The notes under the pieces are model-generated. The model had not been told where the DNA came from. It worked only from the letters and a program-made list of their open reading frames with translations, and did not search any database. Of a DNA stretch of 46,936 nt, positions 21,048-23,032 are shown piece by piece. Made by a program: the position numbers and the translations under genes. Numbering within the stretch: position 1 is the first letter of the stretch; the number at the start of each line of letters is the position of its first letter. The DNA lies in the IMG/VR virus record IMGVR_UViG_3300028173_000017; one strand, written 5' to 3'. The DNA is from a virus.

Positions 21048-21110
21048 ATGTTGACGGCTGATATTGTTGTAGATTGCCAATACGGCGATTGTGGTTTTTT
21101 GTTTACCTAG
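21048..21110 (+). pseudogene. duplicated 5' fragment of the purA-like gene (MLTADIVVDCQYGDCGFLFT*)
   Basis: about 80% nt identity over about 38 nt to the purA-like N-terminus at 22031-22075 (MSKLSADVVVDCQSGDCGKGK). Confidence 0.5.
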
Positions 21111-21122
21111 ATATTTATAATC

Positions 21123-22007
21123 ATGTTCATAAAAATACTACACAAGACTGCCCCACCAAAACGTACATTGCTACTGCAATGTGAAACATGCAACATAAAA
21201 TTCAAAAGAATGTATAGAAAAGCTTGTATGAGCGCAAATTATCATTTTTGCTCGCGAGCGTGCTGCGATGCAAACCCAGGACGCCGCCAAAGATCAGGAA
21301 AGTCGATTAAGGCGAAAGCAAGTCAAGCTAACGAGAAAAGAAAGCAAACGACTTTAGACCGATATGGCGTTAAGAATGTCTTTGCTGCAAAACAAATCAA
21401 AAAAAGAATCATTGCTAGCAATTTAGAAAAGTATGGTGTTGAAAACCCATCACAGGCTCAAGAAGTCAAAGAAAAGAAAAAGCAAACAATGCTAAAAAAT
21501 TACGGTGTAGAATATCCCGGACAGTCTCAAGAAATCAAAGAAAAAATAAAAAAGGTCGTTATGGAACGATATGGCGTTGAAAATGTAATGCATGATAATG
21601 AAATAGCAAATCGGGCAGCATGCAATGGAGGTGGCCGGGCATTGTCAAAACGCTATGTTACAAAATTTGATGACACGATTGCGGTGCAAGGATCATATGA
21701 ACAAAAATTTGTTCAATTTTGTGAAAGTAATAATATTCGTGTCCATAATGGGCCGACAATAAAATACGCATATAATGGTACCATTCATCATTATTTTGTA
21801 GATTTTGAAGTTGAAACAACAAATGGAAATAAGCTTGTCGAAATAAAAAGCACATATTGGTATGACAAACAAAAAGATAAAGTCATGGCAAAGAACGCCG
21901 CGGCAACAGATTATTGTAAACTGAACAACAAAACGTTTTGTTTTATTATAAACAAGCGAAACGCGAAAAAACAAATTGACATAAACGATTTCAAACAAAT
22001 CTTATAA
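21123..22007 (+). CDS. homing-endonuclease-like protein: N-terminal zinc ribbon, four tandem ~23-aa (R/K)YGVxN repeats, C-terminal PD-(D/E)xK core
   Basis: CETC..FCSRAC; repeats DRYGVKNV.., EKYGVENP.., KNYGVEYP.., ERYGVENV..; HHYFVDFEVE...LVEIKSTYW; very AT-rich. Confidence 0.55.
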   Translation: MFIKILHKTAPPKRTLLLQCETCNIKFKRMYRKACMSANYHFCSRACCDANPGRRQRSGKSIKAKASQANEKRKQTTLDRYGVKNVFAAKQIKKRIIASNLEKYGVENPSQAQEVKEKKKQTMLKNYGVEYPGQSQEIKEKIKKVVMERYGVENVMHDNEIANRAACNGGGRALSKRYVTKFDDTIAVQGSYEQKFVQFCESNNIRVHNGPTIKYAYNGTIHHYFVDFEVETTNGNKLVEIKSTYWYDKQKDKVMAKNAAATDYCKLNNKTFCFIINKRNAKKQIDINDFKQIL

Positions 22008-22015
22008 AGGAAAAA

Positions 22016-23032
22016 ATGAGTAAACTATCAGCAGATGTTGTTGTAGACTGCCAAAGTGGCGACTGCGGCAAAGGAAAGGTTGTTCATTCGCTGGCGAAGA
22101 AGGGAAACTATACCCATGTCATGCGATTCAGTGGAGGCTCCAACGCAGGCCACACAATCTACCACGAAGGGAAGAAATTTGTCACCCACCTGGTGCCAGC
22201 CGGTGTGTTCCGCGGGCTGAAATCGATTATTGGTCGAGGCTGTGTTGTCGACACCAAAAAGCTGATGAATGAAATATCTGAGCTTGCGGCTGCTGGAATT
22301 GAGATGGTTGATCTTCTCCGTGTATCTGAAAAGGCACACTTGGTGACACCCGAACATGTCGAAGAGGAAGCAGGTGAATCCCGAATCGGTACGACCAAGA
22401 CAGGGAATGGTCCTGCGTATCGTGATAAGGTCAGTCGTGTTGGCACATGTGCTGAGGAAGACTGGCGTCTCGGGCTTTACTTGATTGACGAATACAAGGA
22501 ACTTCATACAAATGAGGCCGATGTCAATGTCCTAATGGAGGGAGCCCAAGGCTTCTATCTCGATGTCGACTGGGGAGACTATCCATACGTCACGTCTGCA
22601 ACCTGCACCACCGCCGGAGCTGTCATGGCGGGCATCCCACCGCAGGCAATCAAGAAGGTGTACGGTGTGGCCAAGCCATACGAAACATACGTCGGTGCCA
22701 AGGCGTTTCAGGGTAAAGAGCCTGCGTTGTATGAACTGCAAAAGGTTGGCAACGAGTTTGGAGCTACTACGGGACGTCCACGACAGACAAATTGGCTGGA
22801 CGTCGACAACCTTATCAAGGCAGTAAACGTAAATGGTGTCAACACGTTGATAATGAACAAAAGCGATGTCTTCGAGGAGGTCGGTGTCTTCAATCTTTAC
22901 AAGGACGGGCAGCTCATTACTGTGATTAAGGAATTTCACACTTTCAAGTTTATCGTTGGGGAGTTTTTGCGCCAATCATGCAGTCAGTCATTGAATGAGA
23001 TCATTTGGTCGGCATCACCTTTGGAGATATAA
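22016..23032 (+). CDS. short (338 aa) archaeal-type adenylosuccinate synthetase homolog, PurA or PurZ family
   Basis: P-loop VVVDCQSGDCGKGK, GGSNAGHT, GTTKTGNGPAY, NEFGATTGRPRQ; at E. coli PurA numbering E14 is Cys and H41 is Ser. Confidence 0.8.
   Translation: MSKLSADVVVDCQSGDCGKGKVVHSLAKKGNYTHVMRFSGGSNAGHTIYHEGKKFVTHLVPAGVFRGLKSIIGRGCVVDTKKLMNEISELAAAGIEMVDLLRVSEKAHLVTPEHVEEEAGESRIGTTKTGNGPAYRDKVSRVGTCAEEDWRLGLYLIDEYKELHTNEADVNVLMEGAQGFYLDVDWGDYPYVTSATCTTAGAVMAGIPPQAIKKVYGVAKPYETYVGAKAFQGKEPALYELQKVGNEFGATTGRPRQTNWLDVDNLIKAVNVNGVNTLIMNKSDVFEEVGVFNLYKDGQLITVIKEFHTFKFIVGEFLRQSCSQSLNEIIWSASPLEI

Follow-up and report, generated by a model that had tools for sequence, protein, structure and literature searches.

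In the 46,936-nucleotide (nt) virus record IMGVR_UViG_3300028173_000017 from IMG/VR, the whole of which is called the window below, a homing-endonuclease gene (HEG) lies directly upstream of a purA-like gene of purine synthesis and is flanked on both sides by coding sequence for the start of that gene. We consider it probable, at roughly three chances in four, that this HEG belongs to a free-standing and apparently mobile cassette that is specialised on the purA-like gene, bringing a replacement start for it and stranding the original one upstream. The three open reading frames (ORFs) that the initial annotation placed at this locus all hold at their coordinates: a 20-codon ORF at 21048-21110 (+), which translates to MLTADIVVDCQYGDCGFLFT and a stop, the HEG of 294 amino acids (aa) at 21123-22007, and the purA-like ORF of 338 aa at 22016-23032, which begins MSKLSADVVVDCQSGDCGKGK... 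and starts nine bases past the HEG stop. An AGGAG motif (21035-21039) lies 8 nt 5' of the ATG of the 20-codon ORF, directly past the stop of a 176-aa ORF (20506-21036).

The two copies of the purA start match between 21057-21095 and 22031-22069 at a constant offset of 974, with 30 of 39 nt (77%) and 11 of 13 aa identical, close to the figure of about 80% over some 13 codons that had been reported for them. Chance similarity of the two copies was rejected, as their local alignment score of 22 exceeds anything seen in 5000 shuffles (7.2 ± 1.2, maximum 14), and in the whole 46.9-kb window, on both strands, the best non-self match to the purA start is the copy in the 20-codon ORF. The GC content of the endonuclease region is 0.30-0.40, compared with 0.45-0.55 in the flanks.

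A blastn search of positions 19700-24600 against 50,697 phage records returned no match, and there is no cultured relative among the phage records searched. The related loci discussed below are contigs numbered L020 to L145. One of them, L039 from IMG/VR, is a syntenic relative with the gene order orf158/orf94/orf176/purA/orf90/orf162/orf210, a purA product that is 85% identical at the amino acid level, and no HEG. In L039 the stop of orf176 is followed by aggagctcataa and then by ATG TTG ACA GCA GAT GTT GTT GTA GAT TGC CAA TAC GGC GAT TGC GGT AAA GGA AAG, and the uninterrupted purA begins MLTADVVVDCQYGDCGKGK. The contig thus passes from orf176 straight to ATGTTGACAGCAGAT...GATTGCGGTAAAGGAAAG, and its empty site reads ...GATTGCGGT/AAAGGAAAG... 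without a break, the slash marking where the window carries 974 extra bases, placed exactly between GGT (G16) and AAA (K17). The stranded copy is identical to L039 at 44 of 48 nt, compared with 30 of 39 nt against the working copy of its own genome, and the 20-codon ORF is therefore a genuine purA start. Comparison with endonuclease-free relatives, which had been proposed as a check, therefore identifies the fragment as the beginning of purA and not as part of a different gene. The core of the working copy matches L039 at 33 of 39 nt, and all six differences fall within the last 22 nt before the junction.

The closest relative, L078, is a Tara Oceans scaffold that was found by a DNA-pattern scan of metagenomes; it is 87% identical to the window at the nucleotide level upstream and 93% from 22030 on, and it too has no HEG between orf176 and purA. 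Its purA start joins a native-type context (ggagttctataaATGTTGATA) to a core that is identical to the working copy of the window at all 39 positions. Two types of site can be told apart here, a Y-type in L039 and the stranded copy (CAATACGGCGATTGCGGTAAAGGAAAG; in L039 ...TGCCAATACGGCGATTGCGGTAAAGGAAAGGTT...) and an S-type in the working copy of the window (...TGCCAAAGTGGCGACTGCGGCAAAGGAAAGGTT...). The chimera in L078 is the product that would be expected of recombination between direct repeats or of conversion of the site only, and would equally fit a lineage with a native S-type allele. The absence of the HEG from both L039 and L078 at the same locus supports the original suggestion that the endonuclease sits between two copies of its probable target region as a footprint of homing. 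The features of the locus, as defined mainly by these comparisons, are collected in Table 1.

Table 1. Features of the purA locus, in positions of the window.
Feature	Position	Strand	Basis or remark
Original purA ribosome-binding site (RBS), AGGAG	21035..21039	+	Now serves the stranded 20-codon ORF; same context (cttaggagc.c.taaATGTTGAC) 5' of the intact L039 purA
Stranded original purA 5' end, 16 codons, MLTADIVVDCQYGDCG, last residue the fourth of the P-loop	21048..21095	+	44/48 nt to L039
Left end of insert: T-rich linker of 27 nt, adding FLFT and a stop (21108-21110) to the stranded ORF and making up the 5' leader of the HEG	21096..21122	+	
HEG, 294 aa	21123..22007	+	Pfam, PHROG, conserved residues, AlphaFold2 (AF2) model, fold match, low GC
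Spacer with new RBS for the working purA (AAAGGA, 22006-22011, overlapping the HEG stop)	22008..22015	+	Sequence
Replacement purA 5' end, 18 codons, MSKLSADVVVDCQSGDCG; new start and recoded P-loop-proximal part	22016..22069	+	Core 33/39 to L039, 39/39 to L078
Body of the purA-like gene, from P-loop KGK on	22070..23032	+	Pfam Adenylsucc_synt; 93% nt to L078, 85% aa to L039
Complete 974-bp insert: linker, HEG, RBS, replacement 5' end	21096..22069	+	Defined against the L039 empty site

The strongest evidence for a cassette is the recurrence of this layout. HEG loci were drawn from ENA, JGI, Logan and IMG/VR assemblies by way of protein homologues, contigs and an alignment-based scan; a scan of IMG/VR with the single HEG protein yielded just four loci, none of them informative. 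Without exception, the closest HEG homologues (41-66% identity) are found immediately 5' of an Adenylsucc_synt gene, and the layout was found in about ten groups of uncultured phages. Clear stranded purA starts are present in the window, L054, L075/L096, L088, L098 and L095, and degraded ones in L066, L068, L072, L091 and L097. With a slash at the end of the purA-derived part, the stranded ORF reads MIKFIDIIQDLSYGDCG/FDRLFIA and a stop in L054, whose working copy reads MIKFVDIIQDLAYGDAGKG, MIQFADIVVGLSYGDES/LKK.. and a stop in L075/L096, MPADVVLGLQYGDEG/FLLE and a stop in L088, and MIADIIVGLSFGDEGK/AF.. in L098. The linker of the window is homologous to the leader of L066 (ctag..ata.ttata..ATG), and in most lineages the junction is followed by a run of T. 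Stranded starts end at or within one codon of the same point, GDxG/KGK, in at least eight phage lineages. Such repetition speaks for a defined, heritable architecture and against an accident of imprecise repair, so that the initial annotation's mention of imprecise gene conversion is not borne out.

Independent confirmation comes from a second nuclease family with the same 5'-end-replacing layout. In L020 (4271-5040) a GIY-YIG HEG (4368-4982; Pfam 1.5e-14) lies between a stranded purA start (MIDYADVVVDLA/C and a stop) and a working purA (4989-). The junction lies four codons closer to the start, and the 12 codons that the copies share encode the same residues (12 of 12) with eight synonymous differences. 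Other loci look like fossils of repeated invasion and decay: L066 has two stacked purA-start remnants 5' of one HEG (61-783 and 720-783) with a 228-aa minus-strand ORF between them, L095 has two stacked remnants at about 2125-2270, and in L145 (2501-2671) only the last 58 residues of the HEG are left beside purA.

The initial annotation had also considered a remnant of a split purA. If the gene were split or intron-bearing, the fragment would be a first exon or an N-terminal piece to be spliced or assembled with the downstream product, and it does end exactly on a codon boundary inside the P-loop; moreover, phage HEGs are known from group I introns and from fractured genes (PMC2677866). The downstream gene, however, is complete without splicing, with its own RBS, ATG and N-terminus, the HEG ORF has its own start and stop with no intron or intein around it, no Rfam intron model was matched at the gathering threshold or at E<=1, and in several other lineages the upstream fragment is degraded while purA is intact. 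Of the explanations weighed here, this is the one to which we give the least credence.

The way in which the two copies differ carries further information on their origin. Across five lineages, codons that differ between stranded and working copies comprise 34 synonymous and 12 non-synonymous cases (binomial p = 1e-9 against 0.3), and this preponderance of synonymous change indicates that the copies diverged as working alleles in different genomes, as would be the case for homing between relatives. Direct repeats that flank an insert can also come about by slippage during replication or by unequal crossing-over: the purA start would have been duplicated locally in tandem, and an unrelated endonuclease gene would have landed between the copies later. 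Local copies, however, start out identical and the dead one drifts at all codon positions, whereas here 34 of the 46 codons with changes differ synonymously, and a better match to the allele of another genome is seen in the upstream copy than in its neighbour. Nor does local duplication account for the same junction codon in many lineages and a similar layout with a second HEG family, and it is judged very improbable.

Differences between the copies are concentrated at the junction, with 23 of 54 positions changed in the last 18 nt against 19 of 87 further off (Fisher p = 0.013), in the part of the segment that is most conserved in protein. This clustering fits selection for a target that the resident nuclease would not recognise, without amounting to proof. 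From a table of P-loop codons in more than 60 alleles, no simple criterion emerged by which sensitive and immune sites could be told apart.

A single ancient insertion followed by vertical inheritance also has to be weighed, in which the endonuclease would be immobile, either dead or domesticated, and the upstream fragment a slowly decaying leftover. The nearest neighbours of HEG and PurA do coincide (window with L066, L054 with L075, L068 with L072/L087, L072 with L091), and the junction position and T-rich left end are common to the lineages. Only this nearest-neighbour concordance was used, as the correlation of HEG and PurA identities over all pairs (rho = 0.09) is confounded by the partial PurA of L066. 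Vertical descent of a dead element is possible for the deep history, but it is at odds with the empty sites of relatives that are 87-93% identical, L078 (93% nt in purA) among them, and with a near-intact remnant in the window. That remnant is an intact ORF, closer to the working L039 allele (44/48) than to its own neighbour copy, and its mainly synonymous differences are unexpected for an old pseudogene. The HEG ORFs are full-length with catalytic residues at most of the HEG-bearing loci examined, the exception being the decayed C-terminal piece in L145, and stacked remnants point to repeated events. As an account of this locus, inheritance of an immobile element is thus considered improbable.

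The product of the 294-aa ORF matches Pfam DUF7487 (5e-28), PHROG families annotated as homing endonuclease, and, just under the cut-off of 26.5 bits, Pfam Tn7_TnsA-like_N (25.6 bits, 1.8e-5). An alignment of 39 homologues reveals an N-terminal CxxC...C...C zinc module, tandem YGVxNPxQS...K.K..T helical repeats (four in the protein of the window) and a C-terminal PD-(D/E)XK nuclease. D227 is invariant in this alignment and E193, E240 and K242 are kept in at least 90% of it, E240 and K242 forming an E-x-K motif; all four residues are invariant within the purA-linked subfamily. An AF2 model built on the homologue alignment has a predicted local distance difference test score (pLDDT) of 87.8, and its top Foldseek matches in the PDB are TnsA structures 1f1z/1t0f (probability 1.0, 127 columns, root-mean-square deviation 3.3 Å), followed by R2 RLE, Bax1 and XisH. 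Both the arrangement of acidic and lysine residues and the alpha/beta core fold of the model place the protein in the PD-(D/E)XK, or restriction-like, superfamily. Matches in isolated phages are at most 30% identical by protein search, and the designation as a homing endonuclease, inferred in this way, rests on fold, motif and genomic behaviour.

A Tn7-like transposon is not indicated, as no TnsB or TnsC genes adjoin the HEG and the flanking repeat is a diverged coding piece of 39-48 nt, unlike a short target-site duplication (5 bp in Tn7). Contigs of 50-210 kb (L080-L086) encode longer DUF7487 proteins of about 400 aa beside a major capsid gene of nucleocytoplasmic large DNA viruses (NCLDV) and a type II topoisomerase, and the family therefore spans giant viruses and phages. 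Around these distant genes of about 400 aa, which lie beside the NCLDV capsid, topoisomerase II or a helicase (L080-L086, L062), no flanking direct repeats were detected (z <=3), so that the layout is peculiar to the purA-linked subfamily and not shared by DUF7487 at large.

Taken as a cassette, the locus suggests the following cycle. The endonuclease would recognise the conserved P-loop coding sequence of a cassette-free purA (...GGn GAy TGy GGT/AAA GGn AA...) and break it at or near GDxG/KGK, and the break would be repaired from a cassette-bearing genome during mixed infection. The comparison with the empty site shows that the unit gained at GDCG/KGK consists of the linker, the HEG, an RBS and a start codon with recoded codons 1 to 18. 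It also shows how purA is kept intact with neither an intron nor an intein: the insert provides a site for translation to start and the first codons of the gene, joined in frame to its body. The displaced original start is left upstream as a 16-codon fossil, its stop supplied by the linker. The replacement copy, which differs mostly beside the junction, would be a poor substrate and so would confer self-immunity, as the clustering of differences suggests. In the donor, the stranded copy and the upstream gene would serve as the left homology arm and the purA body as the right arm, so that the layout would spread as a unit. Recombination between the direct repeats could then delete the HEG cleanly, leaving HEG-free and possibly immune alleles and closing a cycle of gain and loss with which L078 is compatible. 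To judge from the stacked remnants, the join on the left may at times be illegitimate, as when the upstream region of the donor is non-homologous, and such a join may also have been the first origin of the layout.

It might be asked whether the stranded ORF is more than a fossil. With its strong RBS and a stop 12 nt before the HEG ATG, ahead of which there is no Shine-Dalgarno (SD) sequence in the window, it could act as a leader ORF, translation terminating at 21108-21110 and re-initiating at 21123, so that by coupling the HEG would be expressed from the original purA signals. In L054 the stop of the fragment overlaps the HEG start (ATGA), the HEG of L075 likewise has no SD, and lineages with degraded fragments (L068, L072, L087) carry their own GAGG or AGGAG before the HEG. 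The correlation is partial and the sample small, however, as L088 combines an intact fragment with an SD while L089 lacks both, and coupling would require just an open frame, leaving the conserved amino acid sequence of the fragment unexplained. A terminator-like hairpin with a T-run at 21072-21090 is weak (7 pairs, 3 of them GC), such matches occurring at only about twice the shuffled expectation. A leader role is speculative and we regard it as unlikely, though far from negligible.

Several observations weigh against the reading as a mobile, self-immunising cassette with a coupled leader. Compared with L078, the closest relative, it is the working copy that looks native and the stranded copy that looks imported, so that the choice of comparator decides which of them passes for native; the stranded Y-type copy could be this genome's former start or could have been brought in from a donor by co-conversion. 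The S-type site also occurs in L078, which has no HEG, and the P-loop codons of HEG-less alleles are highly variable. Vertical descent could account for much of the history, as HEG and PurA have concordant nearest neighbours. For coupling, an SD before the HEG is absent in only three of the five lineages with intact remnants, and RNA structure at the junction and leader does not rise above shuffles (z = 0.2). On the side of the protein, the TnsA fold match is limited to the C-terminal domain, with a modest E-value of 9e-3 and a TM-score of 0.31-0.34, and a literature search found no paper on DUF7487 and no DUF7487 protein with demonstrated cleavage or homing.

The class of mechanism is already known from mitochondria and from MobA of phage T4; what is new is the layout in which a 5' end is replaced, the purA P-loop as target, the nuclease family and a possible recoding variant. 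The literature search found nothing relevant on purA-targeting homing endonucleases in phage. The closest analogue, of which the window is a mirror image, comes from fungal mitochondria, where mobile ORFs (mORFs) accompanied by a duplicated gene terminus have been described for atp6, atp9, cox2 and nad3 of Glomus (PMC3630166), with the atp6 mORF of Allomyces macrogynus as a further example (Paquin et al. 1994, as cited in PMC3630166). As in the window, the endonuclease ORF carries a foreign host-gene end that is fused in frame while the native end remains beside it as a remnant, and the native remnant is nearer to the alleles of relatives than the inserted copy is, with mostly synonymous differences (PMC3630166). 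The mitochondrial elements differ in that they replace a 3' end, with the ORF downstream and encoding a LAGLIDADG or GIY-YIG enzyme, whereas the window has a replaced 5' end with RBS and start, an upstream ORF of the DUF7487/PD-(D/E)XK type and a phage host genome. An inserted in-frame terminus and a displaced native terminus flank the ORF in the window as they do an mORF, the terminus here being the 5' one, and the remnant behaves as in mORFs when set against L039 (44/48 vs 30/39; 34:12 synonymous to non-synonymous), a relation that is reversed against L078.

The MobA/gene 60 cassette of T4, on which Bonocora et al. reportedly worked in 2011, is the closest parallel drawn from phages. There too a HEG sits within a conserved enzyme gene, and its cassette replaces the segment with the cut site by a divergent homologous copy (homR) that has features guarding against self-cleavage; repeated gain at one site and hit-and-run losses are further points of resemblance (bioRxiv 10.1101/2022.08.31.505936). 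MobA, in contrast, is an HNH nickase that splits a topoisomerase gene into two ORFs and deletes the native 55-75 nt, and self-nicking is blocked by a 50-nt translational bypass (bioRxiv 10.1101/2022.08.31.505936). The cassette of the window keeps a single ORF, relies on plain recoding and leaves the native segment stranded, while three sister lineages may use a +1 frameshift.

Free-standing HEGs of the T4 type, SegF, SegG and MobE, resemble that of the window in lying outside an intron or intein and beside a nucleotide-metabolism gene, in their variable presence and in the expected co-conversion of flanks; as far as found, they differ in lying between intact genes with no duplicated fragment, and their cut site is typically distant from the insertion point, whereas in the window the insertion point is the presumed cut site (PMC2988022, PMC2790892). 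Fractured genes such as nrdA/mobE of Aeh1 (Dassa et al. 2009, PMC2677866) also have a phage HEG within a coding region and expression signals brought by the insert, but those host genes are genuinely divided, function being rescued by split inteins or by assembly of subunits, and their nuclease belongs to a Vsr-like type (D..H..D; PMC2677866), whereas the gene in the window is unsplit and its nuclease has E..D..ExK. TnsA of Tn7 and I-Ssp6803I, a PD-(D/E)XK homing endonuclease, share the restriction-endonuclease-like catalytic fold. The sequence identity to TnsA is about 11% and the window lacks a TnsB/C/D context and transposon ends; I-Ssp6803I, for its part, is encoded in an intron and has neither the zinc module nor the YGVxNP repeat array.

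Outside the window, five contigs of three deep sister lineages have an extra A inside the P-loop codons of the working purA 5' end, TGGGGGG AT GAA A GGC AAA GGT AAA (L072, 1090-1120; L073, 1162-1192; L074, about 1073; L091, 3300-3335; L095, 3246-3280). In L072, L091 and L095 the stretch reads TGGGGGGATGAAAGGCAAAGG, and a 24-nt string, GGGGGGATGAAAGGCAAAGGTAAA, is identical in three lineages with PurA bodies that are 41-64% and HEGs that are 50-66% identical. Between L072 and L091 the 5' segment has four synonymous changes and one non-synonymous change. The upstream frame ends ...WGDE(RQR and a stop). Downstream, the frame (GKGK...NAGH...) stays open for 312-329 aa as an intact ORF, and of the 10-15 Arg codons in these genes 0-1 are AGG. 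Sites of +1 frameshifting include those of prfB (AGGGGG-UAU-CUU-UGA-C) and Ty1 (CUU-AGG-C). By analogy, the string looks like a site of this kind, with an SD-like G-run, a 2-nt spacer, GAA in the P site and a rare AGG followed by C, and GDEGKGK would be regained by a +1 shift. Alternatively, translation might begin at an internal ATG, and the protein would then be missing the GD of the P-loop. The general idea that indels can be compensated by frameshifting has been reviewed (PMC5009743). The broader proposal, that these loci form a previously undescribed family of self-immunising HEG cassettes in which the stranded start is reused as left arm and leader ORF and the target of L072, L091 and L095 is decoded by +1 frameshifting, is put forward tentatively and at less than even odds.

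The purA-like product itself matches Pfam Adenylsucc_synt (2.9e-78) and scores below the NCBIfam cut-offs for both PurA (267 vs 402 bits) and PurZ (NF038379, 135 vs 300 bits). An identity as PurZ, of the 2-aminoadenine pathway, is unsupported at that score, and by these matches the product is most simply described as a short (338 aa), divergent PurA-like protein. Its P-loop reads GDCGKGK, with Cys in place of the Glu of GDEGKGK. Beside the purA-like genes of relatives L072 and L075 are genes for ThyX, RNR (ribonucleotide reductase), IMPDH, thioredoxin and a DHHA1-like protein.

The neighbourhood of purA is a hotspot of variation. In L039 a gene with TROVE (Ro60-like) and vWA domains lies between purA and orf90 (6403-7743), and in L078 an unrelated 96-aa ORF lies between orf176 and purA (reverse complement, about 1203-1493). 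The window has a single occurrence of the 11-mer TAGATATTTAT, at 21108-21118, running from the stop codon of the stranded ORF into the leader of the HEG; in L078 (reverse complement, about 1171-1181) the 11-mer coincides exactly with the stop of the orf176 homologue. An ancestral order orf176-HEG-purA with no remnant may have left this trace, or the agreement may be due to chance.

Elsewhere in the window, a full-length transfer-messenger RNA (tmRNA) gene lies at 24626-24985 (+), some 1.6 kb downstream of purA (Rfam 92 bits; the tag peptide given by ARAGORN is ANDNSEYSYAQAA and a stop), and a cluster at 5194-5423 (+) encodes tRNA-Gly(GCC), tRNA-Arg(TCG) and tRNA-Thr(GGT). A 325-aa ORF at 4231-5208 (+), which ends within the tRNA-Gly gene (start 5194), has weak matches to zinc-finger and endonuclease I/HNH families, and may be another free-standing endonuclease by the tRNA cluster. 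Genes of auxiliary metabolism include a nicotinamide phosphoribosyltransferase (17369-18778), a cytidylyltransferase/NUDIX fusion (16368-17372) and a dehydrogenase (15123-16223); together with a tRNA nucleotidyltransferase (31837-33588), this set suggests a large phage with genes for NAD salvage and translation-related functions.

If the locus is read as a homing cassette, it represents a third way, besides introns or inteins and gene splitting, for a HEG to occupy the most conserved part of an essential-type phage gene. The P-loop codons of purA then offer a concrete target, and a putative natural pair of sensitive and resistant sites, for DUF7487, which is widespread in phages and giant viruses. 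The layout also explains a class of short "orphan" ORFs that are prone to mis-annotation by gene callers, and successive invasions can be read from stacked remnants. Should the +1 insertion of the sister lineages be decoded by frameshifting, it would tie HEG self-immunity to translational recoding in a second, independent system, and would provide, after T4 mobA/gene 60, the second natural case of a HEG that shields its own target in this way.

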